This document shows positions 1,090 to 28,143 of a stretch of DNA of 53,736 nucleotides, one piece after another. Positions within the stretch are counted from its first letter, which is position 1, and the number at the start of each line of letters is the position of its first letter. Source of the stretch: an uncultured Syntrophaceae bacterium (GTDB lineage Bacteria; Desulfobacterota; BSN033; UBA1163). Under the pieces are notes generated by a model. That model made no database searches, was not told the DNA's origin, and saw nothing but the letters and a program-made list of their open reading frames with translations. The stretch is from contig CAZFDM010000301.1 in the NCBI GenBank assembly GCA_964517975.1, positions 1 through 53,736 on the forward strand. Direction: 5' to 3'. A program made the position numbers and the translations under genes.

Positions 1090-1092
1090 CGA

Positions 1093-5685: not shown

Positions 5686-5702
5686 AATCTCATCCCTAAA
5701 TT

Positions 5703-10062: not shown

Positions 10063-11463
10063 TTATTTATTCATCAAATATTCATGAATCGAATTGGCAG
10101 CCTTTCTTCCCGCACCCATGGCAAGGATGACGGTTGCCGAACCAGTGACAATATCACCGCCTGCCCAGACTCCTTCTTTGCTCGTCTTTCCCGTTTCTGG
10201 ATCAGCCACAATATATCCCCGCTTATTGAGGTCAAGACCTGGCGTAGTGGTCGTCAGAAGGGGATTGGCACCTGTACCAATGGCGACGACCGCTAAATCA
10301 CAATCCAATTGAAATTCAGAACCTTTAATGGGAACAGGTCTTCGTCTTCCTGACTCATCTGGCTCCCCTAACTCCATTTTAATACACTCAAATCCTGTGA
10401 CCCATCCATTGTCATCCCCAAAGAAACGAGTTGGCGCAGTCAGGAGATAGAATTGAACTCCCTCCTCCTCAGCATGATGGATCTCTTCAATCCTCGCAGG
10501 CATTTCCTCTCTTGATCTTCGGTAGACAATTCTTACTATGTCTGCTCCTAAACGGAGGGCAGTTCGAGCCGCATCCATGGCCACATTTCCTGCGCCAAAG
10601 ACGGCCACGTTCTTTCCCCGAGCAATGGGGGTATCGTATTCTGGAAAGAGATAGGCCTTCATTAAATTGGATCGGGTGAGATATTCGTTGGCTGAATAGA
10701 TTCCACAGAAGTTTTCTCCTGGAATTCCCAAAAACTGAGGAAGTCCTGCCCCCAACCCCAAGAAGACCGCATCATACTCCTGGAGAAGTTCATCGACAGT
10801 TTCAATTCTACCAATCACACAATTACATTCTACCTTGACTCCTAACTTTTCGAGGTAGTTGACCTCTGCCTGCACAATGGCCTTTGGAAGACGGAATTCT
10901 GGAATTCCATAGATCAACACACCTCCGGGTTTATGGAGGGCCTCAAAGATCGTTACCTCGTGGCCTTTAAGGATGAGGTCCCCTGCAACAGTCAACCCTG
11001 CAGGTCCTGAACCTACCACTGCTATCCTCTTACCCGTTGAGGGGGCTTTTGGGGGAATTGTGACTTCTCCTTTCTCCCTCTCCCAATCCGCAGCAAATCG
11101 TTCCAGTCTGCCAATGGCCACTGGCTGATCCTTCTTCCCAACCACGCAAAACTTTTCACATTGGTCCTCTTGAGGACAGACGCGACCACAGATCGCTGGA
11201 AGACTATTTCGCTCCTTCAATTTTCGGGCTGCGCCAACAAAATCTCCTTCATAGATAAGTTTAATAAAGGCAGGGATATCTATCTCTACCGGACATCCCT
11301 CAATACATTTTGGTTTTTTACATTGAAGGCAACGGCTTGCCTCCAGTTGAGCCACTTCGGGTGGATACCCGTAAGGGACTTCATTAAAATTTTTTGCCCT
11401 TGCCTTTGGATCCTGTTCGGGCATCTTCTGCCTTGGAATCTTCTTCTTTTCCTTTTCTGCCAT
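10063..11463 (-). CDS. nfnB: NfnB/SudA-type (GltD-like) large subunit of electron-bifurcating transhydrogenase
   Basis: RCLQCKKPKCIEGCPV, CGRVCPQEDQC, GSGPAG, GAGNVAMD, YRRS; downstream of nfnA. Confidence 0.88.
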   Translation of the reverse strand: MAEKEKKKIPRQKMPEQDPKARAKNFNEVPYGYPPEVAQLEASRCLQCKKPKCIEGCPVEIDIPAFIKLIYEGDFVGAARKLKERNSLPAICGRVCPQEDQCEKFCVVGKKDQPVAIGRLERFAADWEREKGEVTIPPKAPSTGKRIAVVGSGPAGLTVAGDLILKGHEVTIFEALHKPGGVLIYGIPEFRLPKAIVQAEVNYLEKLGVKVECNCVIGRIETVDELLQEYDAVFLGLGAGLPQFLGIPGENFCGIYSANEYLTRSNLMKAYLFPEYDTPIARGKNVAVFGAGNVAMDAARTALRLGADIVRIVYRRSREEMPARIEEIHHAEEEGVQFYLLTAPTRFFGDDNGWVTGFECIKMELGEPDESGRRRPVPIKGSEFQLDCDLAVVAIGTGANPLLTTTTPGLDLNKRGYIVADPETGKTSKEGVWAGGDIVTGSATVILAMGAGRKAANSIHEYLMNK

Positions 11464-11473
11464 TTTCCCCCCC

Positions 11474-12307
11474 TTATCTTAAGGACGCCATAAACCTGTC
11501 CATCGATACCTTCTCATCAGTAAGATAAGCCCTTTGCCGTTTTACCAACTCATCATAGTCGACCTCATGGCCATCGAATTCAGGGCCATCCACACAACAG
11601 AATCGGGTTCTCCCTCCAACGGTCACTCGGCAAGCGCCACACATCCCTGTGGCATCGACCATGATCGGGTTGAGACTCACCATCGTTTTTACCCCATACT
11701 CTTTGGTCATCTTGCATAAAAACTTCATCATGGGGACAGGGCCAATTCCAACGACCAATTTCACATCTTTTCTCTCATCCAGAATCTTCTTTAAGACATC
11801 GGTGACAAAGCCGTGAACCCCATAACTTCCGTCATCCGTTGTCACCCTCAGGTCATGGCTGGCTGCCTTCATCTCTTCTTCGAGGATGAGAAGGTCTTTG
11901 GTCCGAGCACCGATGATGGCAATGACATGATTGCCAGCCTCCTTGTAGGCTTTGGTGATCGGATACATCACGGCTACTCCTGTTCCACCGCCCACACAGA
12001 TGACCGTTCCAAGATTCTCGATATGGGTTGGACGGCCCAATGGTCCGATGATATCTGTAATAGAATCACCGACATTGAAGGTTCTTAAGAGAGCCGTTGT
12101 CTTTCCAACGACTTGAAAGATGATGTCGATCGTTCCAGCCACAGGATCTGTTCCTGCCATTGTCAATGGGATTCGTTCTCCTGTTTCGTTGGCTCGAAGG
12201 ACAATGAACTGTCCAGGCTTTGCCTTTCGAGCAATTTTTGGAGCTTCGACCCTGAAATGGCAAACCGTTTTTTCTGCCATCTCTCTTTTATAAATGATTT
12301 TATACAC
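11474..12307 (-). CDS. nfnA: NfnA/SudB-type FAD/[2Fe-2S] small subunit
   Basis: ERIPLT, GGGTG, MVDATGMCGACRV, CVDGPEF. Confidence 0.9.
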   Translation of the reverse strand: MYKIIYKREMAEKTVCHFRVEAPKIARKAKPGQFIVLRANETGERIPLTMAGTDPVAGTIDIIFQVVGKTTALLRTFNVGDSITDIIGPLGRPTHIENLGTVICVGGGTGVAVMYPITKAYKEAGNHVIAIIGARTKDLLILEEEMKAASHDLRVTTDDGSYGVHGFVTDVLKKILDERKDVKLVVGIGPVPMMKFLCKMTKEYGVKTMVSLNPIMVDATGMCGACRVTVGGRTRFCCVDGPEFDGHEVDYDELVKRQRAYLTDEKVSMDRFMASLR

Positions 12308-12820
12308 TTTCCCCCCTCCTTTTCTGATAAATTTTTCACAAAGTTCGTCCTATTTATAAAAAAATGAAATTGAAAAGTCAAATTTTTTAATAATGCTTCA
12401 ATAGCCCTTTTCAGTAAAGTGGAATGGAATATTTTATCGAGGAGTGAAACCTCCTTTAACAGACGATAAACAAAGGCTAAAAAATTATTATTAGGTGAGG
12501 GCAAAGAATTTAAGGTAAGGACTTCCATAAATCTGTCTATCTATTCTCCGCAGGCAGGGGAGAAAGTAAATTCTTTTAGACTAAAAAGTTAGCCCTCCGT
12601 TTTAATCATGAAAGAGGGATTTATAAAACTTGCCTTCGGGCCATGACTTTAGCCTCAGAGACTTTATTTTTTTAGAAGAATATGATATATAAATGTTAAT
12701 TATTTCACTAAGTTTATTACATTAAAAAAGAATTAAATTTCAATTAAAATTATACAATAAAAACAATAGATTAATATAATTTAGAAAAGTACCACTGATA
12801 ATTTTATTAAAAAATTTTTC

Positions 12821-12849
12821 TTGACAAAAAGAATCCAATCTTGTAGTTT
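12821..12849 (+). promoter_or_regulatory. Putative sigma70 promoter of the nuo operon
   Basis: TTGACA-N17-TAGTTT downstream of an AT-rich tract. Confidence 0.6.
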
Positions 12850-12900
12850 GTAGCGGAAAGAAGAAACTTTTCACAAATTAGGCTTCTGGGAGGCTCATCA

Positions 12901-13254
12901 ATGATTGAATATCTTGCCATCCTCATCTATATATTAATCGCTGTTGCCTTTGCTATTTTCGCAATTTTAGCTTCCCATCTTTTAGGTCAAAGAAAGCCAT
13001 CTCCTCTTAAAGAAGAACCCTACGAATGTGGGATGACGACGGTTGGGTCGAGTTTTCGGAGGATACCCATAAAATATTACATCATTGCCATGCTCTTTTT
13101 GCTTTTTGATATTGAGGTGGTCTTTCTTTACCCCTGGGCTGTGGTCTTTAAAGAACTAAAAGTCTTTGCCTTTATTTCCATGGCAGTATTCATTGGTATC
13201 TTACTTATCGCCTACCTTTATATCTGGAAAAAAGGAGCCTTAGAATGGGAATAG
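12901..13254 (+). CDS. nuoA: NADH-quinone oxidoreductase subunit A
   Basis: [25 protein letters not shown]. Confidence 0.96.
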   Translation: MIEYLAILIYILIAVAFAIFAILASHLLGQRKPSPLKEEPYECGMTTVGSSFRRIPIKYYIIAMLFLLFDIEVVFLYPWAVVFKELKVFAFISMAVFIGILLIAYLYIWKKGALEWE

Positions 13255-13772
13255 AAACCTATCTTGAAAAAACCCCCCTCCTTCCTTATGTAGATAAACT
13301 TGTCAACTGGGGCCGGAAATACTCTATCTGGCCTGTCACCTTTGGCTTGGCTTGATGCGCCTTGGAGATGATGGTTGCCAGTATGGCGACCTGGGACATT
13401 GCTCGATTTGGTTCTGAGGTTTTCAGGCCCTCTCCAAGACAGGCAGACTTGATGATTGTTGCCGGGACATTGACCAAGAAGATGGCCCCTATGGTCAAGC
13501 GCATCTACGAACAGATGCCAGAACCTAAATGGGTCATTGCTTATGGAGCCTGTGCCTGTTCGGGTGGAATCTTCAAAACCTATAGCGTGGTGCAGGGAGT
13601 AGATCAGATCCTTCCTGTTGATTTTTATGTCCCAGGTTGCCCACCCAAACCTGAGGGACTGCTCGCTGCCTTAGTGAAACTCCAGAAGAAGATTGAAAAG
13701 GAATCGCTGGCCCATCGGAAGGATGTTCGGATTCCGTCCACCTTAGGAAGAGAAGAGGAGAGTCATGGTTGA
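13245..13772 (+). CDS. nuoB: NADH-quinone oxidoreductase subunit B with in-frame UGA at codon 37 (probable selenocysteine), 175 aa
   Basis: ATG 13245: ...[19 protein letters not shown](13353-13355)-CALEMM...SPRQAD...GACACSGG...PGCPP. Confidence 0.9.
13373..13391 (+). promoter_or_regulatory. SECIS-like hairpin after the nuoB UGA
   Basis: GGTTGCCA-GTA-TGGCGACC, 8-bp stem with one G:U, starting 17 nt after the UGA, G at the apex. Confidence 0.7.
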
Positions 13773-14253
13773 GAGCAACCTCGCTGTAAAGAAATTGAGA
13801 GAAAAGTTTTCGGATTCAATTTTAGAGATAAAGAATTTTCGGGATGAGACCACTGTGGTCATTGCAAAGAAAGATATTTTTGAAGTCTGTAAATTCCTCT
13901 CATCCGATCCAGATCTCCAATTCAATCTTCTTACCGATCTCTGCGGGGTAGACTTTCTTCCGGAAAAGCCTCGTTTCGAGATTGTTTACCATCTCTGTTC
14001 CCTTAAAAACAATCAGAGGTTAAGGATTAAAACAAGAGTTGAAGAGAACGAGACAGTGCCAAGTGTGGAGTCCGTTTGGAAGGTAGCCAACTGGTATGAG
14101 CGCGAAGTCTATGACCTGTTTGGGATTGTCTTTGAAAATCATCCAGATTTAAGAAGGATCCTCCTCTGGGATGGTTATCAAGGCCATCCTCTCAGAAAAG
14201 ATTATCCAACCGAAGGACCAGACTTTGATAAGCCCTTCGTTCCCGAGGTTTGA
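13765..14253 (+). CDS. nuoC: NADH-quinone oxidoreductase subunit C
   Basis: [33 protein letters not shown]. Confidence 0.96.
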
Positions 14254-14254
14254 A

Positions 14255-15427
14255 ATGGCAGAGAAAAGGTTGATGACCATCAATATGGGACCCCAACACC
14301 CCGCCACGCACGGGGTTTTGAGGGTCGTTTTGGAATTGGATGGAGAGGTCATCGTCAAGGCCACTCCCCATATCGGGCATTTGCACCGGGGCATCGAAAA
14401 ATTGGCTGAGAGTAGAACCTATCATCAATCCATTCCCTTCACTGATCGATTGGATTATACCAATGCCATGGGGAACAATCTGGCCTATGTTTTGGCCGTT
14501 GAGAAACTCTTAGGCATTGAGATTCCCAAACGGGCTCAATACCTAAGGGTGATGATGGCAGAACTACAGAGGATTGCTGCTCACCTGATCTGGTTGGGAA
14601 CACATGTATTAGATATTGGAGCGACCACCCCTATCTTCTATACCTTTAGGGAAAGGGAAGATATCCTGAGAATTTTTGAAGAGGTTGCAGGTGGAAGGCT
14701 CACCCCCACTTATCTAAGAATTGGTGGAGTAGCAAAGGACCTTCCAGAGGGAATTGATGAGGCCATTCGATCCTTTACCAAGATGTTTCCCGATCGGGTC
14801 AAGGAGTATGAGACCCTCCTGACACAGAATGTCATCTGGATGAAAAGGACTAAAGAAGTGGGGGTGATCTCCAAAGAGGATGCCATCAGTTGGGGGGTAA
14901 CGGGTCCAACCCTTCGAGGGTCGGGAGTGAAATATGATGTGAGAAGGGCCTTCCCTTATTCGAGTTATGAAGAGTTTGATTTTGAGATCCCCATTGGGTC
15001 GGTAGGGGACGTCTACGATCGATACATCGTTCGCCTGAGGGAGATGGAGTGGTCAAACTCCATTGTGAGGCAAGCCATGGAACGTCTGCCCAAAGGGCCT
15101 ATTCTGGCAGATGATCCGAGGGTTGTCCTTCCACCCAAAGAGAGGGTGCTTCAGGATATCGATGCCCTGATCCGACATTTCAAGATTGTTTCCGAGGGCT
15201 TCCGACCTCCTAAGGGTGAGGTCTATGCAAGCGTAGAGGCATCCAAAGGAGAGTTGGGGTTCTATATCGTCAGTGATGGGTCAAACAAGCCCTATCGGTT
15301 CAGGATTAGAACTCCCTCCTTTGCCAATTTGAGTGCCCTTCCTAAGATGATCGAAGGGAGTTTGATTGCAGATGTGATCTCCACGATTGGAAGCATTGAT
15401 ATCGTTCTGGGAGAAATTGATCGTTAG
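14255..15427 (+). CDS. nuoD: NADH-quinone oxidoreductase subunit D
   Basis: NMGPQHPATHGVLR, HRGIEK, RLDY, DIVLGEIDR; start reassigned to ATG 14255 just after the nuoC stop. Confidence 0.95.
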   Translation: MAEKRLMTINMGPQHPATHGVLRVVLELDGEVIVKATPHIGHLHRGIEKLAESRTYHQSIPFTDRLDYTNAMGNNLAYVLAVEKLLGIEIPKRAQYLRVMMAELQRIAAHLIWLGTHVLDIGATTPIFYTFREREDILRIFEEVAGGRLTPTYLRIGGVAKDLPEGIDEAIRSFTKMFPDRVKEYETLLTQNVIWMKRTKEVGVISKEDAISWGVTGPTLRGSGVKYDVRRAFPYSSYEEFDFEIPIGSVGDVYDRYIVRLREMEWSNSIVRQAMERLPKGPILADDPRVVLPPKERVLQDIDALIRHFKIVSEGFRPPKGEVYASVEASKGELGFYIVSDGSNKPYRFRIRTPSFANLSALPKMIEGSLIADVISTIGSIDIVLGEIDR

Positions 15428-15548
15428 CATAGATAAACTCGAAATTCGAAACAAACACAAATGATCAAAATATAAATGTCCGAAACAAAAAAGTTTTGAT
15501 ATTCGAATTTAGAGATGGTTTCGGATTTTCCTGAAATGAGAGGTTCTT

Positions 15549-17501
15549 ATGACGGACATTTTTTTTAGCAGTTGGGGTGGGGTGGTTACGGATAATCGAG
15601 GAAAACTCGAGTCAGAAAGAGCGCCCATGACCAACCTTTCTCTGCCAGTGGAATTTGACCAGGATAAAAAGATTAGAGCCTTTATTGGCTGGGATGGAAT
15701 TGCCATTAGAGATCCTGAAGTCAGTATCATCGATCTGATTCGAGCCTATGTGGAGGCAGTCCAGAAGGAGTCCTGTGGGAAGTGTACCCCCTGCCGTGTT
15801 GGAACCCGTATCATGTTGACCATCCTAAATCGGATCTCAGAAGGTCAGGGAGAGATGGAGGATCTGGATAAACTAAAATATCTGGGAGAGATGATTCTCC
15901 GAAGCTCAAAGTGTAATCTTGGTCAGACAGGGCCAAGACCAGTTCTGGATGCCCTCGAATATTTTAAGACCCAGTTCATCGATGCCATCCAATCAAAAAG
16001 AAGAGTTCCCCATGGAGACTATAAAATCAAAGTAACCGCACCTTGCGTAAGTGCTTGCCCCTCTCATCTTCCCATTTATGATTACATCGAATTAATTAAA
16101 GAAGGAAGGTTTCTTGAATCCCTCGAGGCCATCCGCAATGCCACTTGCCTTCCTGGGATTCTCGGAAGGGTCTGTATCCGGCCCTGCGAATCTAACTGCA
16201 GAAGAGGAAATGTGGATGAATGTCTCTCCATTAAATGGCTGAAGCGTTTTGTCGCAGACTATGAGATAGAAAAGAGAAGAGTCCCATCGGTCCATCAAAG
16301 GGGAACCCGTTCTGAAAAGGTGGCCATCATTGGGGCTGGGCCTGCAGGCCTGAGCTGTGCTTACTATCTTGCCCTTAAAGGTTATCCAGTAACCATCTTT
16401 GAAAGATTGGGGGAACCAGGAGGCATGGCAGCCATGGGGATACCGGATTATAGGCTTCCAAGAAATATCGTGAGGTACGAAACGGAACTTATCGAACGTT
16501 TGGGGGTTGAGATTCGGTATAATACCCAAGTAGGAAAAGACATCACCCTTTCTCAGATCTTCGAACAGGGGTATAAGGCGATCTTCATCGGAGTGGGTGC
16601 TCAGACCAATACACCCATGGGCGTTGAAGGAGAGGATAAAGGATATAAAGGGTTTATCCCAGGAGTTTATTATCTCTTAGAGATCAATATGGGGAGGGAT
16701 CCCTACCCAGAGGGGAAGAGGGTTGTGGTGGTAGGAGGAGGAAATGTGGCCATTGATTGTGTGCGATCCTCCTTCCGCCTTGGGAAACCTGATGTGAATC
16801 TCGTTTACCGTCGGACAAGAAAAGAGATGCCTGCAGACCCTGTGGAAGTCCACGATGCAGAGGAAGAAGGGGTGAAATTCCATTATCTCTGCAATCCTGT
16901 TCGAATCGTGGAGAAAGAAGGAAAGGTCGTTGGGGTTGAATGTATCCGAATGGAACTTGGGGAGCCGGATGAGAGTGGAAGGCGAAGGCCTGTTCCTATT
17001 AAGGGGTCAGAATTCTTCATCGAGACCGATATCTTGATTCCAGCGATCGGTCAGGCCATTGACCTCTCCTTCCTCGATGAGAAGGATGGAATAAAGACGA
17101 CCAAGCGCTCTACTATTGCGGTTCAAGAGGGGACCTTTCTCACGAGCCGTCCAGGGGTTTTCTCTGCAGGAGACTGTGTGACAGGGCCTGATGTCCTGGT
17201 TCGGGCTGCAGGCAACGGGAAGAGGGCAGCGGAGAAGATTGACCTCTTCCTTCGAGGGATGGAGGTAAAGGAATCTGAGGAGGAGCGGTTAGAATCGTTG
17301 ATGGAAAAGATCAAGGTCTACAATAAAGAGGAGAAGGTTGGGATCTCTGGTGGAACAAAGAGAGAGATGTTGAAAATGCTTCCGCCAGAGACAAGAAAGT
17401 GGACTTTTGAAGAGGTGGAGAAAGGATTTTCCATCCCCCAGGCCCAAAAAGAGGCAGAACGTTGTCTTCGATGTGTCCGGATTGGACTCTTTGCAGTGTG
17501 A
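15549..17501 (+). CDS. sfrB: SfrB-like NADPH oxidoreductase (NuoF-type 4Fe-4S domain plus GltD-like flavoprotein)
   Basis: FSSWG...AFIGWDG N-terminus resembles Geobacter SfrB; ESCGKCTPCRVG, CPSH, GAGPAG, GGGNVAIDC, YRRT, AERCLRC. Confidence 0.8.
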   Translation: MTDIFFSSWGGVVTDNRGKLESERAPMTNLSLPVEFDQDKKIRAFIGWDGIAIRDPEVSIIDLIRAYVEAVQKESCGKCTPCRVGTRIMLTILNRISEGQGEMEDLDKLKYLGEMILRSSKCNLGQTGPRPVLDALEYFKTQFIDAIQSKRRVPHGDYKIKVTAPCVSACPSHLPIYDYIELIKEGRFLESLEAIRNATCLPGILGRVCIRPCESNCRRGNVDECLSIKWLKRFVADYEIEKRRVPSVHQRGTRSEKVAIIGAGPAGLSCAYYLALKGYPVTIFERLGEPGGMAAMGIPDYRLPRNIVRYETELIERLGVEIRYNTQVGKDITLSQIFEQGYKAIFIGVGAQTNTPMGVEGEDKGYKGFIPGVYYLLEINMGRDPYPEGKRVVVVGGGNVAIDCVRSSFRLGKPDVNLVYRRTRKEMPADPVEVHDAEEEGVKFHYLCNPVRIVEKEGKVVGVECIRMELGEPDESGRRRPVPIKGSEFFIETDILIPAIGQAIDLSFLDEKDGIKTTKRSTIAVQEGTFLTSRPGVFSAGDCVTGPDVLVRAAGNGKRAAEKIDLFLRGMEVKESEEERLESLMEKIKVYNKEEKVGISGGTKREMLKMLPPETRKWTFEEVEKGFSIPQAQKEAERCLRCVRIGLFAV

Positions 17502-17572
17502 TAGGTTGAGGAGTCTTAAAGGAGTATCCTGAATCGCGAGTCACGACTCACGGAACACGAGGTTTGATTAGA

Positions 17573-20197
17573 ATGATTAAACTGACGATTGATGGGAAAG
17601 AGTTAACTGGGAAGCCAGAACAGACGATTCTGGAGGTAGCCAGAGAGAATGGGATTTACATCCCTACCCTCTGTTATCACGAAAAGTTGAGCCTCATCAA
17701 ATCCTGTCGAATCTGCCTTGTTGAGGTAGAGGGAGCAGAGATGCCGATGGCCTCCTGTGCCACCCCTATCTACGATGGGATGGTGGTGCACACCAAAACG
17801 GAAAGAGTGGAGGGGATGCGAAGAGAGGCCTTGCGGTTATTGCTGGTCAATCACCCCCTTGATTGCCCAGTGTGTGATGCAGGAGGAGAATGTCTCCTTC
17901 AAAATCGGACTTATGAATTCGGGATTGATCGCCAGGAGTTTTTCACTGAAAAGATTGAACGTCCCTCCTTTGAATATGGAACTCCCCTTATTCGACAATG
18001 GCCAGACCGGTGTGTGATGTGCCTTCGTTGCGTTCATGCCTGTATTGATATCCCTGGATCGGATGTTTTGGATGTCGTGGACAATGGCTACTCCTCTCAG
18101 ATTAAAGCAGTTCGAAAGGAGAACTGCATTTCCTGTGGAGAATGCCTTCATGTCTGTCCAGTGGGTGCGCTTACGGAGAACCTCAGTCGGATTAAGGGGA
18201 GAGTATGGCAGTTAGGAAGGGTGCAGACGACCTGTACGTTCTGTGGGTGTGGGTGCCAATTAGAACTCAATACCCTCGGCCAGAGAAAAGTGGTCAAGGT
18301 CACCACTCATAGCGAACCAGGTATCAACCGAGGAAGCCTCTGTGTAAAAGGGAGGTTTGGTTATGACTTCATTCATCATCCGGATCGCCTTAAGAAGCCT
18401 TTGATGAGGAGTGGAGAGGGTTTTGTTGAAGTCTCATGGGAAGAGGCCCTCAACGTTGTGGCTGATAAACTCCAAGAGATAAAACAGAAAGAGGGCCCTG
18501 AAAGCATTGGAGGAATCTCCTCCTCAAGGGCCACCAATGAGGAGAACTACCTATTTCAGAAATGGATGAGGGCCTGTATCGGGACTAATCATATTGACAA
18601 CGGAGTAAGGCTTTCGAGCATTTCCTCTTTTTACGGAATGATGACCTCCATAGGCTCTGTAGGAATGACCCATTCCATGGAAGCGGTCACCAAGGCTGAC
18701 CTCATTCTCATCATTGGAGCGGATGTGGATGATGACCATCTCATCTTTGGCAATAAGATGAGAGAGGCGATGCGAAAGAACGGAGCCAAGATCATTCTGA
18801 TCGATCCTCGAAGAACCTCTTGGGAGAAGTGGGCGGATCTCTGGTTAAGACCTAACCCTAAGACAGACCTATTTCTGATCAATGGTCTGATTCGCCATTT
18901 GATTGAGGCGAAGTCCTATAAAAATGAGTATGTTCTTTCTAAGACGGAAGGTTTCGAGTCCCTTAAATCTTCGTTAGATCGGTTCACCGATGAGTTGGTT
19001 CAGAAGATTTCAGGGGTTTCTTCTGCAGAGTTAAAGTCCTTATTTGACCTTTATCGATCGGCTCATCGGAGGGCGATTGTTTTTGGCTCAGGTGTGGCTC
19101 AACATGCTAATGGGAAAGAAACTGTTCAGGCTCTTTGCAACCTTGCCCTTTTAACAGGAGAAGTGGAGAAGGAGGGAGGGGGACTCTATCCACTCCTTTC
19201 CCAGAATAATGCCCAGGGAGCCTGCGATATGGGTGGACTTTCTGAATTCCTTCCTGGGTATAAAAGGGTGGAGGATGGAGAGGCAAGGAAAAGATTCCAA
19301 GAGGTCTGGAAGGCAGAGATCCCTACAACCCCTGGTTCTACTTATTTAGAGCTTTTTGATCTGATTTTAGAAGGAAGAATCAAAGCCCTCTATGTCTTTG
19401 GTGAAGACCCCCTGCTCACCCTTCCCAATGTCGAAAAGGTTAAAGAATCCCTGAAACAATTGGAGCTCTTAGTGGTCCAGGATATGTTCATGACTGAAAT
19501 CGGGAACTATGCCCATGTGATTCTCCCAGGGGCGAGCTTTGCAGAGAAGGATGGAACCTTCACCAATATGGAAAGAAGGGTTCAAAGGGTGAGGAAGGCT
19601 ATTTTCCCCATAGGGGAGGCCCGAGTGGACTGGAAAATTCTCTGTGATCTCTCCATACGGATGGGATACCTTATGGATTATCAGAACTCCGCTGAGATTA
19701 TGGAGGAGATAGCCGCTCTCATTCCTATTTACTCTAACATGACATACCCCAATCTTGAAAAGGGTGGGGTCCAATGGCTTCCTCTCAATGAGATGAAAAA
19801 GAGATTTATCCCTGTTGAGTATAAAGAACCCTTAGAGAAACCGGATGCCCAGTATCCCTTTTGGATCATTCCAAGGGGATTTCATTATCACTATGGGATC
19901 GGAACGACGACCAAGAGGGCGGAAGGGTTGGCCAAAGTGTTTCGTGATACTTGCATTGAGGTTCACCCAGAGGATGCAAAAGAATCAGGACTTTCGGAAG
20001 GTGACAAAGTGAGAGTGATTTCTCCAAGGGGTGAAGTTGAGACGGTCTGTCGAATTTCTCAAGATCTTCCCAAAGGGGTTGCCTATTTGGCTACCACATT
20101 CTTTCCTGTGTTGATTAACAATCTCTTAGTTCCTAAAGGCGATTCCATCGGTCAGCCTGAATATAAACTTTTCGTGGGGAGGATTGAAAAAAGGTAG
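17573..20197 (+). CDS. sfrA: SfrA/NuoG-like Fe-S protein with molybdopterin-oxidoreductase fold
   Basis: IPTLC..CRIC..C, HPLDCPVCDAGGEC, two 4Fe-4S motifs, CTFCGCGC; Fdh active-site position reads DNGVRLSS (no Cys/Sec); alternative TTG start at 17564. Confidence 0.75.
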   Translation: MIKLTIDGKELTGKPEQTILEVARENGIYIPTLCYHEKLSLIKSCRICLVEVEGAEMPMASCATPIYDGMVVHTKTERVEGMRREALRLLLVNHPLDCPVCDAGGECLLQNRTYEFGIDRQEFFTEKIERPSFEYGTPLIRQWPDRCVMCLRCVHACIDIPGSDVLDVVDNGYSSQIKAVRKENCISCGECLHVCPVGALTENLSRIKGRVWQLGRVQTTCTFCGCGCQLELNTLGQRKVVKVTTHSEPGINRGSLCVKGRFGYDFIHHPDRLKKPLMRSGEGFVEVSWEEALNVVADKLQEIKQKEGPESIGGISSSRATNEENYLFQKWMRACIGTNHIDNGVRLSSISSFYGMMTSIGSVGMTHSMEAVTKADLILIIGADVDDDHLIFGNKMREAMRKNGAKIILIDPRRTSWEKWADLWLRPNPKTDLFLINGLIRHLIEAKSYKNEYVLSKTEGFESLKSSLDRFTDELVQKISGVSSAELKSLFDLYRSAHRRAIVFGSGVAQHANGKETVQALCNLALLTGEVEKEGGGLYPLLSQNNAQGACDMGGLSEFLPGYKRVEDGEARKRFQEVWKAEIPTTPGSTYLELFDLILEGRIKALYVFGEDPLLTLPNVEKVKESLKQLELLVVQDMFMTEIGNYAHVILPGASFAEKDGTFTNMERRVQRVRKAIFPIGEARVDWKILCDLSIRMGYLMDYQNSAEIMEEIAALIPIYSNMTYPNLEKGGVQWLPLNEMKKRFIPVEYKEPLEKPDAQYPFWIIPRGFHYHYGIGTTTKRAEGLAKVFRDTCIEVHPEDAKESGLSEGDKVRVISPRGEVETVCRISQDLPKGVAYLATTFFPVLINNLLVPKGDSIGQPEYKLFVGRIEKR

Positions 20198-20244
20198 ATT
20201 CTCTTTAGAGAGATGAGGTTTTATTGGGGTAGAGGAGAAATAGA

Positions 20245-21264
20245 ATGGAGTTGTTATATCTTCTCATCGAAATCGTGATTAAATGTGTTGTGGTTTTTGC
20301 CTGCCTGATGATCTGTGTGGCCTATCTTACCTGGCTTGAACGGAAGGTTTTGGGCCATATCCAGATTCGTTTTGGGCCAAATCGCTGTGGTCCCTTTGGA
20401 TTGCTTCAGCCCTTTTCAGACGCCATCAAGGCCTTCTTTAAGGAAGACCTTATTCCTGCAAGGGCGGATAAGACGGTCTTCGTCCTTGCTCCGATGATCG
20501 CCATCATCTCAGCCATTAGCCTCTTTGCGGTGATTCCCTTTGGAAATCAGTTTACCATTCCAGGAACGAATTGGGTGGTTAAACTCCGATTGGCCGATGT
20601 AGATATCGGTCTTCTCTATGTCTTTGCCTTTGCCACTCTTGGAGAGTATGGAATCATCTTGGGAGGCTGGGCCTCAGGAAATAAGTATGGACTGACGGGG
20701 TCTCTTCGAGCCGCCGCCCAGATGATTAGTTATGAGGTCTCCCTTGGTCTTTCCATCATTGGGGTGATCATTCTTTCTCAGAGTTTAAGACTCACAGAGA
20801 TTGTCAATCTCCAAGGTGGGGGTTTCTGGAATTGGAATGTCTGGTATCAACCTCTGGCCTTTATCCTTTATATTATATGCGGTCTGGCAGAGATTAATCG
20901 GACGCCATTTGATATGCCCGAGGCTGAATCGGAATTGGCCTGCGGGTTCAACATCGAATATAGCAGTATGAAGTTTGCTCTCTTCTTTATGGCTGAATAT
21001 GCTCATATGATCACCATGGGTGCTGTGGCAGTAACGCTCTTTTGGGGAGGATGGCAGCCTCCTCTCCCTCAACTGGGTTTCATCCCAGGGGTGATCTGGT
21101 TTTGCATCAAATTGTTCGTTTTCGTCTTCTTCTTTATCTGGCAGAGAGGAACCTTTCCAAGACTCCGATACGATCAGATCATGAAGCTTGGCTGGAAGGT
21201 TTTGCTTCCCTTAACTCTTATTAATTTATTGATTACAGGATTCGTTGTCTCACTAAAGGGGTAA
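20245..21264 (+). CDS. nuoH: NADH-quinone oxidoreductase subunit H
   Basis: ERKVLG..Q.R.GPN, QMISYE, PFDMPEAESEL, PRLRYDQ. Confidence 0.96.
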   Translation: MELLYLLIEIVIKCVVVFACLMICVAYLTWLERKVLGHIQIRFGPNRCGPFGLLQPFSDAIKAFFKEDLIPARADKTVFVLAPMIAIISAISLFAVIPFGNQFTIPGTNWVVKLRLADVDIGLLYVFAFATLGEYGIILGGWASGNKYGLTGSLRAAAQMISYEVSLGLSIIGVIILSQSLRLTEIVNLQGGGFWNWNVWYQPLAFILYIICGLAEINRTPFDMPEAESELACGFNIEYSSMKFALFFMAEYAHMITMGAVAVTLFWGGWQPPLPQLGFIPGVIWFCIKLFVFVFFFIWQRGTFPRLRYDQIMKLGWKVLLPLTLINLLITGFVVSLKG

Positions 21265-21267
21265 AAG

Positions 21268-21681
21268 ATGATCATTCCATTATTAAAAGGATTGGGGTTG
21301 ACGCTTTCGAGGTTCTTCTCCAAACCCATCACCATTCAATATCCGGAAGAGAAATTACTCCCTGGAAAAAGGTGGAGGGGAATTCAGTATTTTGAAATGG
21401 ATGAGAAGGGAAAAACAAAGTGCGTGGCCTGTGGCCTCTGCATGGCGGTCTGCCCTTCTCAGTGTATTTATATAGAGACCGCCGAGGATGAACAGGGGAA
21501 TCGATATCCCCTCACCTATGAACTGGATGCATCCCGTTGTATCTTTTGTGGCTTTTGTGAAGAGGCCTGTCCGGTGAAGGCCATATTCTTAGGAAAGAAC
21601 TATGAATGGGTGGAGGGGGATCGAGGGGCCTATCGGATGACGACAGAGAGGCTTTTAGAGGAGAAAAAATTAAATCCCTAA
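21268..21681 (+). CDS. nuoI: NADH-quinone oxidoreductase subunit I
   Basis: TIQYPEE, CVACGLCMAVCP, CIFCGFCEEACP. Confidence 0.95.
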   Translation: MIIPLLKGLGLTLSRFFSKPITIQYPEEKLLPGKRWRGIQYFEMDEKGKTKCVACGLCMAVCPSQCIYIETAEDEQGNRYPLTYELDASRCIFCGFCEEACPVKAIFLGKNYEWVEGDRGAYRMTTERLLEEKKLNP

Positions 21682-21848
21682 TCCCTTAAGTATTTCGTTA
21701 GAAAGGAGAAGGGCTAAGGTAAAGAGGCCCGTAGGGTTATTGGGTTACCTTTTAGGTCTTAACGCATTGAACCTTTTTTGACTTCTAACGTTAGCCGAAA
21801 CGGGCTGCGTAACCGGTGAATGGAAGACAATATTGAGGTAAATGAAAG

Positions 21849-22376
21849 ATGGCTGAAAATATAGGAAACCTATTTCAATGGTTAGTCTTTTTGGGGGCGG
21901 GATTTCTCTCTATTCTTGCCTCGATTCTTGTCATCACCAGGAAGAATCCGATCCACAGTGCCCTCTTTATGGTCCTGACTTTCCTTTGTGTGGCAGTGCT
22001 CTATCTATTGCTCCACAGTCAGTTTATTGCCATCATTCAGGTCGTCGTCTATGCAGGGGCAATCGTCATGTTGATCGTCTTTGTCATCATGCTCCTTGAC
22101 CTGGAGGAAGAACTTCGGAGAGGGCTAAAAATCGTCTATTCAAAAGTGGTTGGGAGTTTTTTGGCCCTCCTTTTTCTGCTTGGAATTCTTTATTCGGTGG
22201 TTGCCAAATCACCCACAGGGAAATTGGGTGTTTATACCTTGGATAAGATGAAAACCAGTACAAAGACGTTTGGTGAAGTCCTCTTTACCCAGTATCTCTT
22301 CCCATTTGAGGTGGTCTCTATACTCCTGGTAGCCGCCATCATTGGGGCTGTGGTGCTAAGTAAAAGGAGAAAATAA
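21849..22376 (+). CDS. nuoJ: NADH-quinone oxidoreductase subunit J
   Basis: [25 protein letters not shown]. Confidence 0.95.
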
Positions 22377-22387
22377 GGAGAAGATTT

Positions 22388-22705
22388 ATGTGGACTGTTC
22401 CAACTATTCCTCCTGAGTTATATCTCGTATTAAGTGGAATCCTTTTTACAATTGGTGTGATTGGGGCCTTGACACGCCGAAATGCTATTGTGGTCTTCAT
22501 GTCCATCGAATTGATGTTAAATGCGGTCAACCTCAGTTTTATCACCTTCTCCCGTTTTCTCCAATCGATGGATGGGGTGGTCTTTGCCTTTTTTGTGATG
22601 GCCGTAGCAGCGGCTGAGGCGGCGGTGGGGTTAGCCATCTTTGTCATGCTCTATCGCTCGAGGGAAACCATCAATGTGGACGAAGTCAACATCTTAAAGT
22701 GGTAA
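22388..22705 (+). CDS. nuoK: NADH-quinone oxidoreductase subunit K
   Basis: [20 protein letters not shown]. Confidence 0.96.
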
Positions 22706-22770
22706 GTTCGGAGTTCAGAGTTCGGAGTTTAACATTAAATGCTCCAAACTCCGAACGAATTACTCCGAAC
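22706..22770. repeat. Intergenic inverted heptamer array (nuoK-nuoL)
   Basis: GTTCGGA-GTTCAGA-GTTCGGA ... CTCCAAA-CTCCGAA-CGAATTA-CTCCGAAC. Confidence 0.75.
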
Positions 22771-22790
22771 GGATACAAGGGGAGTTTTTC

Positions 22791-24779
22791 ATGTTCGACT
22801 ATGTTTGGTTAGTTCCTGCTTTTCCAGCCATCGGATTTTTACTGAATGGTCTTTTGGGGAGACGATATAGCAAGAAGGTCGTCGGTTGGGTGGCCTGTTC
22901 AGCACTGGGTCTCTCCTTTCTCACTTCCATCCTTATCTTCTTTGCGCTCATCGGAAGGCCACCCACTGAACGATTTTATGAAAAGGTGATCTTCGACTGG
23001 GTGGTCTCAGGTTCTTTCCAGACCGTGATCGGATACCAGATCGATCCTCTTTCTATTCTCATGGCGCTGGTGGTCACGGGAGTGAGTTTCTTCATCCACA
23101 TCTATTCCGTTGGATATATGCATGACGACCCAGGCTACCCACGTTATTTTACCTATCTCAATCTCTTTGTCTTCATGATGCTTAACCTTGTCCTTGCCAA
23201 TAATTTCCTTCTGATGTTTGTAGGATGGGAAGGAGTAGGGCTCTGTTCCTACCTGTTGATTGGGTTCTGGTTTGAAAAGGACTCTGCGGCGAATGCAGGG
23301 AAGAAGGCCTTTGTGGTGAACCGTGTAGGGGACTTTGGGTTTATCCTTGGAATGTTCCTTCTCTTTACCAGCCTTGGTCAAAAGGGAATCTGGACCCTCG
23401 ATTTCACAGAGGTCTTTCAGAATGCTCATCTTCTCGATCCTACCACCGTCACCCTCATCACCATCCTTCTCTTTATTGGAGCCTGCGGCAAATCCGCCCA
23501 GATTCCACTCTATGTTTGGCTTCCGGATGCTATGGAAGGACCTACTCCGGTCAGTTCTCTCATCCATGCTGCCACCATGGTGACCGCAGGGGTTTATATG
23601 ATCGCCCGGTGCAATGTGCTTTACAGCATGGCACCTATCTCCATGGCCATTGTAGCGATTGTGGGTGTGGCCACCGCCATCTACACCGCCTCGATTGGAT
23701 TTTGCCAGAACGATATTAAGAAGGTATTAGCCTATTCGACAATCAGCCAGTTGGGTTATATGTTCTTAGGAGTAGGGGTTGGAGCCTTCAGCGCTGGAAT
23801 CTTTCACCTGATGACCCATGCCTTTTTCAAAGGGCTCCTCTTCCTTGGAGCAGGCAGTGTCATGCATGCCCTGAGTGGGGAACTGGATATGAGGAAGATG
23901 GGAGCGCTAAGGACAAAGATTCCCATCACCTTCTGGACCTTCTTCATTGCTACCCTGGCTATTGCAGGGATTCCCGGGCTTTCAGGATTTTTTAGCAAGG
24001 ATGAGATCCTCTGGCAAGCATTCTCAAGTTCCCATGGTCATTTCTTACTCTGGCTGGTCGCGGCAGTGGCTGCTGGGATGACCGCCTTCTATATGTTCAG
24101 AGCCCTGTTTTTGACCTTCTTTGGGGAGTCAAGGGTTGATCCTCATGTAGCACACCATATCCATGAATCTCCTAAGATCATGACCATTCCTCTCATTATC
24201 CTCGCTATTCTCTCTGTCATCGGAGGATACGTGGGTGTTCCCCATGTCTTAGGAGGAGCCAATCATATCCATGAATTTCTGGCCCCTGTTTTAGGAGGAG
24301 GGGAACCTGCCAAGGCCCATTCAGCCATCACTCTTCTTTCCCAAGCCTGGGCCTCGGGAGGAGAGGGAGTAGGTCATTCTGCTGCGTTGGAACTTCTCAT
24401 GATGGTGGTTTCAGTCATCATTGCCCTGATTGGAATTGGAATCGCCTACCTCTTCTATATCAAAAACCCAGAACTTCCAAAACAGTTGGCTGAGAGGTGG
24501 AAGAGGTTATATACCCTAATCTACAACAAGTACTATGTGGATGAGATTTATGAAGTTCTCTTTGTCAACTCCTTAAAGGGCTTAGGCACAGGCCTCTGGA
24601 GGGGTTTTGATGACTTTGTGATCGATGGAACGGTCAATGGCATTGCTTATCTTATTGGGTTAATTTCAAGGGTGATGAGAAGGATGCAGACTGGGTTTGT
24701 TCAGAACTATGCCTTTTCGATGATCCTTGGCGCTGTGATTATCGCAGGATATTACCTTGTGCGTGCCATTTTCTATTAG
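22791..24779 (+). CDS. nuoL: NADH-quinone oxidoreductase subunit L
   Basis: GWEGVG, GKSAQIPL..WLPDAMEGPTPVS, HAFFK. Confidence 0.96.
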   Translation: MFDYVWLVPAFPAIGFLLNGLLGRRYSKKVVGWVACSALGLSFLTSILIFFALIGRPPTERFYEKVIFDWVVSGSFQTVIGYQIDPLSILMALVVTGVSFFIHIYSVGYMHDDPGYPRYFTYLNLFVFMMLNLVLANNFLLMFVGWEGVGLCSYLLIGFWFEKDSAANAGKKAFVVNRVGDFGFILGMFLLFTSLGQKGIWTLDFTEVFQNAHLLDPTTVTLITILLFIGACGKSAQIPLYVWLPDAMEGPTPVSSLIHAATMVTAGVYMIARCNVLYSMAPISMAIVAIVGVATAIYTASIGFCQNDIKKVLAYSTISQLGYMFLGVGVGAFSAGIFHLMTHAFFKGLLFLGAGSVMHALSGELDMRKMGALRTKIPITFWTFFIATLAIAGIPGLSGFFSKDEILWQAFSSSHGHFLLWLVAAVAAGMTAFYMFRALFLTFFGESRVDPHVAHHIHESPKIMTIPLIILAILSVIGGYVGVPHVLGGANHIHEFLAPVLGGGEPAKAHSAITLLSQAWASGGEGVGHSAALELLMMVVSVIIALIGIGIAYLFYIKNPELPKQLAERWKRLYTLIYNKYYVDEIYEVLFVNSLKGLGTGLWRGFDDFVIDGTVNGIAYLIGLISRVMRRMQTGFVQNYAFSMILGAVIIAGYYLVRAIFY

Positions 24780-24830
24780 AGGGTTTAACACGAATTACGG
24801 AAACGATTTGATAAAAAAGGAGTCGGTTTC

Positions 24831-26381
24831 ATGACAATCTTAGGTATTCCGATCTTATCCCTGGTGACCTTTTTCCCACTTTTGGGCGCCGTTGTTTTAC
24901 TCTTTATCGATAAAGAGAACCTGAAGGCACTTCGGTGGGTTGCCTTGCTCTTTGCCCTGGTTGAATTTATCTTCTCCTTACCCCTCTTCTTCGCCTTCAA
25001 TCCAAAGATCGCAGAGATGCAGTTTGTGGAGGATTGGTGGTGGGTCGAGTCCTATGGGATCAGTTACAAATTGGGAATTGATGGGATCAGCCTCCTGCTC
25101 GTCCTTCTCACGACCTTCCTGACTGTTCTCTGTATTCTCTGTTCTTGGAGTGCGATCACCTTTCGGGTGAAGGAATATATGATCTCCTTTCTCTTTCTTG
25201 AAACGGGGATGGTAGGTGCCCTGGTTGCCTTGGACCTTATCCTCTTCTATGTCTTCTGGGAGGTAATGCTCATCCCCATGTATCTTCTGATTGGTGTCTG
25301 GGGAGACCCCAAGAGAAGAATCTATGCGGCGATCAAATTCTTCCTCTTTACCATGGCAGGAAGTGTTTTGATGCTGGTGGCCATCTTAACCCTTTACTTC
25401 ATCAATCAGAAGGCAACAGGAAAGGCCACCTTCGATGTCCTTGAACTCTATAAACTCGGACTTCCAATCGGAACTCAATATTGGCTCTTTTCTGCTTTTG
25501 CTCTGGCCTTTGCCATCAAGGTCCCGATGTTTCCTTTCCACACCTGGTTGCCCGACGCCCATACCGAGGCTCCCACTGCTGGAAGTGTGATCCTGGCCGG
25601 AGTTTTATTGAAGATGGGAACCTATGGATTCATTCGATTTGCCATCCCCCTCTTCCCAAATGCAGCCTATGAATTGATGCCCCTCATCTCGGTTCTGGCG
25701 CTTATTGGGATTATTTATGGGGCCTTGGTTTCGATGATGCAACCTGACCTAAAACGCCTGGTTGCCTTCTCAAGCGTGAGCCACCTCGGTTATGTGATGC
25801 TTGGAATGTTTGCTTTCAACATGCAGGGAGTCCAGGGGTCCATCTATCAGATGCTCAATCACGGGATCAGCACAGGATCCCTCTTCTTGATCGTCGGAAT
25901 GATCTATGAGCGACGACATACCAGGATGATCGCTGATTTTGGAGGACTTTCAAAGGTGATGCCCATCTATGCAGCCTTCTTTATGATTGTCACCCTCTCC
26001 TCGATTGGACTTCCGAGCACAAACGGATTTGTAGGAGAATTTTTAATCCTGTTGGGAGCCTTTCAATCGAATACGGTTTATGGGGTACTGGCTGCCACAG
26101 GGGTGATCCTGGGGGCAGCCTATATGCTCTGGATGTTTCAGAGGGTGATGTTTGGAAAAATCACAAGGCCTGAAAATGAAGGACTGAAAGATCTAAATGG
26201 TCGGGAGATCGTGACCCTTATCCCCATGGTCATCCTGATCTTCTTGATGGGAATCTATCCAAAACTCTTCTTCAGCAAAATGGATGTGAGCGTTGAGAAA
26301 TTTTTAAAGGATTTCAAGGGAAGGGTTGAAATGAAAGCAGACCTACCTTCCCCGGAGATATTAGCAGAAGTTAAGAGATAA
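24831..26381 (+). CDS. nuoM: NADH-quinone oxidoreductase subunit M
   Basis: [33 protein letters not shown]. Confidence 0.96.
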
Positions 26382-26456
26382 GAGTTATGAGTTCGGAGTC
26401 CTAAGGTCGGAATATCAAAATTAATCTATCCGAACCTCGAACGAATTACTCCGAAC
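26382..26456. repeat. Intergenic inverted heptamer array (nuoM-nuoN)
   Basis: GAGTTAT-GAGTTCG-GAGTCCT ... TCCGAAC-CTCGAAC-GAATTAC-TCCGAAC; shares the exact 19-mer CGAACGAATTACTCCGAAC with 22752-22770. Confidence 0.75.
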
Positions 26457-26473
26457 TATCCGGAGGATATTGA

Positions 26474-27925: not shown

Positions 27926-28009
27926 CATTCGGATTTTTATAACCCCCGCCTTCGAAGCTAAGCATCCCATCAAGATAAGAGACAAATTTATTAAGATCGC
28001 ACCTTAAAA

Positions 28010-28028
28010 CCCCGTCCTGTGGACGGGG
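28010..28028. repeat. GC-rich palindrome, directly repeated at 29494-29512
   Basis: CCCCGTCC-TGT-GGACGGGG versus CCCCGCCC-TGT-GGGCAGGG, each preceded by TTAAA plus one base. Confidence 0.65.
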
Positions 28029-28143
28029 ATGAAAGGTGTGTATGCTGAAAGCAGAAAAAATAAACCAGATGCTGATATCATGAAAACGCTGTTCCTCCAA
28101 ATAGTGTAGAATATATCTTAAAACTCGAAAGGAGGAACGGAAA

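Follow-up and report, generated by a model that had tools for sequence, protein, structure and literature searches.

How is complex I fed in anaerobes whose nuo operons are 'headless' or otherwise odd, and how do syntrophs lift electrons from quinone to NAD(P)H, ferredoxin, formate and H2? Both questions are raised by a nuo operon of an uncultured Syntrophaceae bacterium (GenBank assembly GCA_964517975.1; 3.03 Mb in 305 contigs, 92.7% complete), which we analysed in a window of 53,736 nucleotides (nt), positions 1 to 53,736 of the forward strand of contig CAZFDM010000301.1. In the nuoEFG position this operon carries two other genes, here called beta (SfrB/FdhB-like) and alpha (NuoG/FdhA-like). 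A preliminary description of the window had taken them for the subunits of SfrAB and the whole for a proton-pumping NADPH:quinone oxidoreductase. Our own reading, held with moderate confidence, is that the operon would encode a reversible, proton-coupled NADP(H):menaquinone oxidoreductase with alpha and beta as the input module of complex I. Published sources are cited by identifier or as preprints.

Two genes in the nuoEFG position

The operon runs on a single strand in the order nuoABCD-beta-alpha-nuoHIJKLMN, with beta and alpha occupying the nuoD-nuoH interval (Table 1). This is the one-operon layout given in the preliminary description, and the two open reading frames (ORFs) fill exactly the span (15549-20197) that it had singled out. 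All 11 core subunits (NuoA, B, C, D, H, I, J, K, L, M and N) are matched by Pfam and NCBIfam models, NuoB only when an in-frame TGA is read through. Among the 13 operon ORFs Pfam gives no match to NuoE (2Fe-2S_thioredx, PF01257) or to the flavin mononucleotide (FMN) domain of NuoF (Complex1_51K, PF01512), so that the interval indeed lacks NuoE and an FMN-type NuoF, as first described. The gaps between nuoD and beta (121 nt), beta and alpha (62-71 nt) and alpha and nuoH (47 nt) each hold a Shine-Dalgarno-like site, and none of the three contains a terminator-like site. Apart from these empty gaps the promoter and terminator scan of 12300-28600 is uninformative, with both counts at chance level (18 promoter-like sites for an expected 19.8; 21 terminator-like sites for an expected 20.8). 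Two gene starts may need shifting: the NuoD family match begins at residue 34, so nuoD probably starts near 14270, and for alpha the ATG at 17573 is likelier than the TTG at 17564, because the Shine-Dalgarno spacing fits and most orthologs align from residue 4.

This operon is the only complex I found in the genome. The one NuoH match in the genome is its own; seven NuoF-family matches, beta included, all score under the equivalog cut-off, the longest two open frames around those other than beta being 622 and 653 amino acids; and the seven NuoE-type matches all lie on other contigs. RnfD was not found in the genome.

Beta had been described as a fusion of a NuoF cluster domain with a GltD-type flavoprotein carrying GGGNVA and YRRT motifs of the NADPH type, and both its domains and its alignment to NfnB and StnC bear this out. 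Pfam places NADH_4Fe-4S at residues 62-144, Fer4_20 (the DPD/GltD 4Fe-4S domain) at 163-242 and Pyr_redox_2 at 257-556, and the NuoF model TIGR01959 aligns only from position 293 to 408 of its 410 (75 bits, cut-off 558.65). Residues ~25-155 match the cluster domain at the C-terminus of HydB and NuoF chains, Nqo1 (2fug_1, 307-433) among them. Residues ~160-645 match solved GltD-type NADPH domains (9bov_A, 4e-116; 9n5u_A 'NfnA', 7e-116; StnC 8oh5_C, 2e-102; NfnB 4ylf_B, 3.5e-96), with the stretch VYRRTRKEMPA common to beta, 4ylf_B, 8oh5_C and 9bov_A in the residue alignment. The C-terminal tail (606-642, ending CLRC) aligns with the N-terminus of NfnB, so that the GltD cluster ligands are complete but permuted. 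All 14 beta orthologs aligned keep 12 cluster cysteines, the flavin adenine dinucleotide (FAD) motif GAGPAG, GGGNVA and Y420-R421-R422. GxGxxA is the NADP(H)-type glycine motif (PMC7483475), and in T. maritima NfnB Tyr310 and Arg311-312 are named as binders of the NADP phosphate (preprint 10.1101/717884). Judged by GxGxxA and Tyr-Arg-Arg, the second nucleotide site of beta is thus of the NADP(H) type.

Alpha combines NuoG-type N-terminal Fe-S domains with the Pfam domains Molybdop_Fe4S4, Molybdopterin and Molydop_binding; sites for a [2Fe-2S], a His-Cys3 [4Fe-4S], two ferredoxin-type [4Fe-4S] and an FS0 [4Fe-4S] cluster are followed by a molybdenum/tungsten bis-pyranopterin guanine dinucleotide (Mo/W-bisPGD) fold. 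It scores just under the cut-offs of both the formate dehydrogenase alpha model (648.4 bits against 666.25) and the NuoG model TIGR01973 (435.5 against 470.05), and its best solved relatives are alpha chains of NAD-dependent formate dehydrogenases (9wxb_B, 3e-170; 6tg9_A, 9e-168). The active site of formate dehydrogenases is made up of a Cys or selenocysteine (Sec), a His and an Arg, which in 6tg9_A are Cys386, His387 and Arg587. Because Ser, Ser and Leu occupy these positions in alpha, it is not a normal formate dehydrogenase, and the alignment to 6tg9_A upholds the earlier view of a NuoG/Fdh-fold protein whose motif DNGVRLSS (residues 345-352) lacks the catalytic Cys/Sec. The Fe-S ligands have fared differently from the catalytic fold: 18 of the 19 ligand cysteines are invariant in 16/16 orthologs and the last, Cys257, in 15/16, and identity to the window alpha is 65-94% in the N-terminal Fe-S part as against 45-84% in the Mo/W-bisPGD part. 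Retained ligands together with a decaying catalytic fold fit a wiring subunit rather than an enzyme.

Distribution among relatives

Orthologs of beta (E <= 1e-200, single copy) are found in 57 of 68 genomes of the organism's class and in 32/32 of the high-quality ones. At 18 ortholog loci of relatives, nuoD lies directly 5' of beta in 17 (the other, L028, ends there with its contig) and nuoH lies 3' of the module in 18/18; alpha stands between beta and nuoH in 16, and in two beta is followed directly by nuoH. Since the order nuoD-beta-(alpha)-nuoH is kept in relatives, the arrangement is no chance feature. All 16 slot alphas lack the Cys/Sec and the Arg, with the His retained in two. In L036 and L038, which have no alpha in the slot, a full-length FdhA that has TGA-His...Arg is encoded just upstream of nuoA.

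When species-representative genomes were scanned with the beta alignment, 80 named loci were obtained, partly overlapping the set of 18. Beta lies inside a nuo operon in 44 of them (43 by script, L058 by eye): 29 have a catalytically dead alpha, seven have a Sec-His...Arg alpha in the slot (L073, L082, L085, L086, L089, L097, L099), four have no alpha in the slot and four are cut by contig ends. Three of the four without a slot alpha have a full-length Sec-FdhA adjoining the operon, and the upstream side of the fourth, L056, lies beyond the end of its contig. The labels include Syntrophorhabdus, Syntrophorhabdales, Syntrophus, Smithellaceae, Syntrophales, the benzene degrader ORM2a, Deferrisomatales and Candidatus Acididesulfobacter; record labels are loose for many loci, and several different order-level labels occur among the nuo-embedded ones.

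A second NuoH paralog, with 47-51% identity, is present in 17 of the 68 class genomes. In a relative from the same family (locus L128, G067:C2:1094000-1113900) it belongs to a canonical operon, nuoA-nuoBCD(fusion)-nuoE-nuoF(FMN)-nuoG-nuoH-nuoI, which exists besides the non-canonical one. The coexistence of both types in some relatives suggests that they have different, non-redundant roles. Co-occurrence of beta with a NuoH ortholog across the 68 genomes (54 have both, 8 have neither, 3 have beta alone and 3 have NuoH alone) was considered as independent evidence and rejected, given that the two genes share an operon and often a contig.

Beta-type genes also occur alone. Those at L076, L078, L080, L081, L083, L084, L087, L088, L091 and L096 are 49-57% identical to the window beta, are labelled Desulfobacteraceae, Desulfococcaceae or Olavius symbiont, and are nested inside the nuo-associated clade of the beta tree. 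At L064 a full-length FdhA-like alpha (L064:3968-6637) adjoins beta, and within the limits of the contig the two lie outside nuo. In this alpha Ser occupies the Sec/Cys position, and the His and the Arg are kept.

Descent of the module

In a FastTree phylogeny of 94 beta rows, a nuo-associated clade of 63 rows (support 99) is made up of 37 betas from loci with a dead alpha, 6 with alpha elsewhere, 5 with a live alpha, 4 from cut nuo loci and 11 non-nuo genes. Below this clade stand non-nuo pairs with a Sec-FdhA neighbour, and in the beta and alpha trees alike the basal relatives are FdhAB-type pairs that have a Sec active site. The alpha/beta pair therefore falls among pairs of the NADP-type FdhAB kind, some of them in the same nuo slot with an intact Sec site. 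In a quick alpha tree of 38 rows, from which 18 were left out (among them the long branches L111 and L114), a single branch separates the 23 nuo-embedded dead alphas from the remaining rows with a Shimodaira-Hasegawa-like approximate likelihood ratio support of 98.7, which fits a single loss of catalysis provided that the root lies outside them.

These observations point to a module that descends from an NADP-linked formate dehydrogenase of the FdhAB type, recruited into the nuoEFG slot, whose alpha later decayed to a wiring subunit; the descent follows from the fact that some relatives keep a Sec-FdhA with an intact active site in the alpha slot. They also point to some lineages having moved or lost parts of the arrangement. 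Living relatives display the stages of the transition: an FdhA with an intact active site may occupy the slot or lie next to the operon, or the slot may hold a dead alpha.

An in-frame TGA in nuoB

The nuoB reading frame is interrupted by one TGA, at the first Cys of the tandem-Cys motif FGLA-[C]-CALEMM that binds cluster N2. In a first set of relatives this position is TGA in 8/17 and Cys in 9/17, and all fetched loci together give 17 distinct TGA segments against 34 distinct TGC/TGT segments. A hairpin resembling a selenocysteine insertion sequence (SECIS) follows 20 nt after the TGA; hairpins occur at the same place in other TGA loci, with one paired change from CC..GG to CU..AG, and the stretch from +15 to +48 folds with a mean of -8.5 kcal/mol in TGA loci against -5.6 kcal/mol in Cys loci. 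The genome contains tRNA-Sec and selA, and the window two further Sec genes. The TGA is a candidate codon for a selenocysteine that would ligate the final Fe-S cluster of complex I.

Comparison with known systems

Compared with the canonical 14-subunit complex I (Thermus thermophilus, Nqo1-3 in 2fug, and E. coli), the operon shares the 11 core subunits, the NuoG-type Fe-S N-terminus and the N3 domain. It differs in having no NuoE and no FMN/NADH domain, in a flavin site of the GltD/NfnB-type for FAD and NADP(H), and in an alpha that is nearer to FdhA than to NuoG by the scores given above.

Geobacter SfrAB is reported to have been purified as a soluble enzyme by Kaufmann and Lovley in 2001 and is described as being encoded outside nuo, unlike the pair described here, which lies inside a nuo operon. 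The preliminary description had taken the locus to support docking of Geobacter SfrAB on complex I, a step that does not follow from this locus. The likeness to Geobacter sulfurreducens SfrAB is one of description, a GltD-like NADPH subunit with an FdhA/NuoG-like subunit (PMC7483475, PMC9888536), the 80 loci containing no Geobacter sequence.

The NADP+-dependent FdhAB of Moorella thermoacetica has the same two-subunit architecture, and its genes are annotated sfrB2, sfrA2 and fdhF3 (PMC13040438). Beta shows the FdhB layout, a NuoF C-terminal cluster joined to a GltD-type FAD/NADPH domain, and its orthologs are named 'formate dehydrogenase (NADP+) beta subunit' by JGI; alpha departs from FdhA at the active site, with Ser-Ser...Leu for Sec/Cys-His...Arg, and the genes, unlike those in Moorella, lie within nuo.

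The best structural relatives of the GltD domain of beta are StnABC (the Sporomusa-type Nfn) and the 9bov and 9n5u fusions. In StnABC-type enzymes, as here, an NADPH site of the GltD type is connected to an Fe-S scaffold resembling NuoG (PMC7483475), but there the GltD domain forms part of the NuoG-like chain itself, and the enzyme, which has a NuoEF-like pair, is soluble. With NfnAB the operon shares an NfnB-like flavin domain, yet it has no NfnA-like gene.

The closest printed item found is the proposed NfnB-like replacement of NuoF in complex I of Sulfurimonas denitrificans and related Campylobacterota, which has a flavoprotein with Tyr-Arg-Arg in the nuoF slot and for which a reverse-running, NAD(P)H-making role with ferredoxin bifurcation has been proposed (preprint 10.1101/717884); the flavoproteins are likened by description. 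Sulfurimonas is from another phylum, and two NuoG copies take the place of one FdhA-derived alpha. For Thermodesulfobacteriota, no description of this operon type was found in the accessible parts of the literature, searched without supplements.

Proposed mechanism and alternatives

In the mechanism we favour, beta and alpha would be the electron-input module in the NuoEFG position of the organism's sole complex I. NADP(H) would bind beta at the GltD/NfnB-type FAD site, and electrons would pass through the two GltD-type [4Fe-4S] clusters of beta to the N3-like [4Fe-4S] cluster in its NuoF-C-terminal domain. Alpha, a catalytically dead formate dehydrogenase alpha subunit serving as the NuoG equivalent, would carry them over its five Fe-S clusters to NuoI, from where they would reach cluster N2 in NuoB and then menaquinone, with NuoH and NuoJ-N translocating protons. 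Such an enzyme would be reversible, and its useful mode in a syntrophic-type anaerobe whose genome yielded no Rnf may be the reduction of NADP+ by menaquinol, driven by the proton motive force. This reverse direction is attractive given the neighbouring nfnAB and mvhD-fdhA-hdrABC genes and the fact that no Rnf was found; we infer it, as we do the attachment to Nuo, the preference for NADPH over NADH and the type of quinone. As for the preliminary reading of a proton-pumping NADPH:quinone oxidoreductase, its operon architecture, NADP(H)-type motifs and lost formate dehydrogenase site stand, and docking is its presumptive part.

A complex prediction was run on alpha residues 1-860 with NuoI, from a 16-row alignment of each, in three runs with three controls. 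The score was 0.60 (runs 0.60, 0.59 and 0.60) against 0.07 for the best control, a verdict of 'weak support', with at least 76% contact agreement and a partner predicted local distance difference test (pLDDT) value of at least 83. Of the 157 solved complexes in the benchmark 116 passed, as did 2 of the 215 mismatched pairs; passes at a score of 0.60 or below comprised 18 of the 157 solved complexes and both passing mismatches, counts that hold only roughly, own alignments having been used here.

Several observations weigh against our reading. The case for docking consists of gene order and this one weak prediction, whose pass may reflect the likeness of the pair to the solved NuoG-NuoI pair, and among the 16 rows compared nuo-linked alphas differ from non-nuo FdhA alphas by no indel of two or more columns, so that no docking element was seen. 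The 11 non-nuo genes sit inside the nuo-associated beta clade, and monophyly of the 37 nuo-embedded betas is rejected (approximately unbiased test, p-AU 0.00012; seven context changes; the quick beta tree held 72 of the 94 rows, the other 22, near-duplicates and one very long branch, having been left out), which means that beta can be encoded, and may function, away from nuo. Two lone betas lie in annotated loci, L076 and L091, and neither has a redox neighbour (nuo, FdhA or other) there. It is from motifs that beta would prefer NADPH to NADH. The AlphaFold2 monomer model of beta (14-row alignment) is poor, with a mean pLDDT of 59.8 and a predicted template modelling score of 0.51, too low for a fold search or for reading the geometry between the GltD clusters and the N3-like cluster. 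Finally, no selB scored over its cut-off in the 92.7%-complete genome, and if the TGA in nuoB is not decoded, NuoB would be truncated.

Some of these points would suit a soluble SfrAB-like NADPH oxidoreductase that is merely co-transcribed with an 11-subunit 'headless' Nuo fed by ferredoxin (compare cyanobacterial NDH-1 and Moorella), an alternative that we consider unlikely. Same-clade betas do stand alone in 11 loci (labels Desulfobacteraceae, Desulfococcaceae and others), alpha has no docking-specific indel, and headless 11-subunit Nuo complexes are common, with ferredoxin as the proposed donor (PMC13040438). Mere co-transcription does not sit well, however, with a pair placed exactly in the nuoEFG slot in 44/80 loci under several order-level labels, with an alpha in which the NuoG-type Fe-S ligands are all retained and the catalytic fold is decaying, with 23 dead alphas that are all nuo-embedded and lie on one side of a branch, or with the alpha-NuoI prediction, which passed, if weakly.

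An attached module could also work differently, the FAD of beta bifurcating or confurcating like that of NfnB: in reverse, NADP+ and ferredoxin would be reduced together, and in the forward direction the electrons of NADPH would be split between quinone and ferredoxin. The operon has no second electron exit and Pfam finds no NfnA-like [2Fe-2S]/FAD partner in it; GltD and the StnC domain share the fold and are not known to bifurcate at this flavin; and a separate, complete nfnAB pair is present, so that the organism need not build bifurcation into Nuo. We therefore hold this to be rather improbable, even though the flavin domain of beta is closest to NfnB- and StnC-type domains, nfnAB lies divergently just upstream of the operon, and this mechanism has been proposed for the NfnB-like NuoF replacement in Sulfurimonas denitrificans (preprint 10.1101/717884). 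The preliminary description had pointed to electron bifurcation; nothing in the locus speaks for it.

That the donor or acceptor is NADH, with the module a non-orthologous replacement of NuoEF performing the same chemistry, seems to us a slender chance. Specificity is read from motifs only, and an NADH oxidation route would be useful to a genome that has no canonical NADH-type complex I, but GxGxxA and the invariant Tyr-Arg-Arg match the NADPH-binding NfnB and StnC, and relatives with a canonical NuoEFG complex I also keep the non-canonical one.

A formate-linked complex, through residual activity of alpha or docking of the short Sec-FdhA encoded 7 kb upstream in the window, is very improbable: seven related loci have a Sec-His...Arg FdhA in the alpha slot, and of the four without a slot alpha three have a full-length Sec-FdhA adjoining the operon (the fourth being cut by a contig end), but the window alpha lacks all three catalytic residues and the short FdhA lies on the opposite strand inside the mvhD-fdhA-hdrABC cluster, its likelier partner.

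Should the NADP(H):menaquinone reading hold, it could be extended, tentatively, to the physiology of Rnf-less syntrophic Thermodesulfobacteriota. The enzyme would be their engine of reverse electron transport, in which the proton motive force lifts menaquinol electrons, for example from acyl-CoA oxidation via electron-transfer flavoprotein (ETF), to NADP+; NfnAB and the Fdh-MvhD-HdrABC system would use this NADPH to produce reduced ferredoxin as well as formate or H2 for a methanogenic partner, and the putative selenocysteine of NuoB would tune the potential of N2 for low-potential quinone chemistry.

If the module docks, the operon would represent a class-wide complex I with an NADPH-type input module derived from formate dehydrogenase, and a clear case of complex I gaining new input modules. 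We know of no characterised example of a proton-coupled NADP(H):menaquinone oxidoreductase. Genome surveys score such organisms as lacking complex I or as having it incomplete: an ORM2a preprint reports a Nuo that lacks a single subunit, nuoG, and a Smithellaceae survey gives nuoA-N in 5%, 4%, 38% and 0% of four lineage groups, that is, mostly absent (PMC13685792). Because surveys of this kind miss a non-canonical complex I, metabolic models may be wrong at this step.

Neighbouring genes and other features

The nuo operon is preceded by a divergent nfnAB pair and, farther upstream, by a cluster for a formate dehydrogenase-MvhD-HdrABC system with two Sec codons (Table 1). The adjacency of nfnAB and nuo was considered as evidence of coupling and rejected as local to this genome: the relatives' loci examined have no nfnAB within a flank of ~5-10 kb of the nuo operon, and nfnA/nfnB-like genes occur in two of 100 loci, L047 (~20 kb upstream of nuo on the same G011 contig) and L109 (non-nuo). 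Short Sec-FdhA genes directly upstream of nuoA in several relatives were likewise rejected as extra subunits, their counterpart in the window sitting in the mvhD-fdhA-hdrABC cluster.

Table 1 Features of the nuo operon and its upstream neighbours in the window
Feature	Position	Strand	Basis or remark
mvhD-FeS-fdhA(Sec)-hdrA(Sec)-hdrC-hdrB cluster	208-6902	-	Formate dehydrogenase-MvhD-HdrABC, two Sec codons
HdrA TGA codon	3050-3052	-	
Short Sec-FdhA	3631-5685	-	TGA 5275-5277, CARLUHSS
Fe-S protein	5703-6512	-	
mvhD	6513-6902	-	
nfnB	10063-11463	-	Complete nfnAB pair, divergent from nuoA
nfnA	11474-12307	-	Complete nfnAB pair, divergent from nuoA
nuoA	12901-13254	+	Pfam Oxidored_q4, 1.9e-37
nuoB, one in-frame TGA read through	13245-13772	+	NuoB subfamily models match from the residue after the stop; same frame open upstream
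TGA at first Cys of FGLA-[C]-CALEMM (cluster N2), Sec candidate	13353-13355	+	Sequence read and ortholog alignment
SECIS-like hairpin, 8 bp, GUA loop	13373-13391	+	Predicted fold
nuoC	13765-14253	+	Pfam Complex1_30kDa, 1.8e-49
nuoD ORF	14171-15427	+	TIGR01962, 584.8 bits against cut-off 459.35
beta, SfrB/FdhB-like, 650 amino acids	15549-17501	+	NADH_4Fe-4S, two GltD-type [4Fe-4S], FAD and NADP(H) sites
N3-type cluster ligands Cys76, Cys79, Cys82, Cys122 of beta	15774-15914	+	NADH_4Fe-4S; invariant in 14/14 orthologs
NADP(H)-type motifs of beta, GGGNVA 396-401 and YRRT 420-423	16734-16817	+	Aligned to 4ylf_B, 8oh5_C, 9bov_A
alpha, NuoG/FdhA-like, 877 amino acids from TTG	17564-20197	+	NuoG-type Fe-S N-terminus, Mo/W-bisPGD fold
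Ser351-Ser352 of alpha (RLSS), replacing Cys/Sec-His	18614-18619	+	Aligned to FdsA chain 6tg9_A Cys386-His387 (RVCH)
Leu545 of alpha (PLLSQNN), replacing catalytic Arg	19196-19198	+	Aligned to 6tg9_A Arg587 (PLRGQNN)
nuoH	20245-21264	+	Pfam NADHdh, 3.8e-125
nuoI	21268-21681	+	TIGR01971, 143 bits against cut-off 113.05
nuoJ	21849-22376	+	Pfam/NCBIfam match
nuoK	22388-22705	+	Pfam/NCBIfam match
nuoL	22791-24779	+	TIGR01974, over cut-off
nuoM	24831-26381	+	TIGR01972, over cut-off
nuoN	26474-27925	+	TIGR01770, over cut-off; last gene of the operon

Just 3' of nuoN, an ORF of 417 amino acids (28078-29331, minus strand) has no Pfam match at E <= 1e-5. Homologs of AbiEii-family nucleotidyltransferases (type IV toxin-antitoxin) at 8437-9108 (plus strand) and 29921-30631 (minus strand) flank the redox block. 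At locus L129 (G000:C100:1-6288), a second NuoG/FdhA-like Fe-S protein of 841 amino acids, 33% identical to alpha, is encoded directly upstream of etfB, etfA and an acyl-CoA dehydrogenase gene, with the contig ending just upstream; it may be the Fe-S partner of this ETF/acyl-CoA dehydrogenase system.

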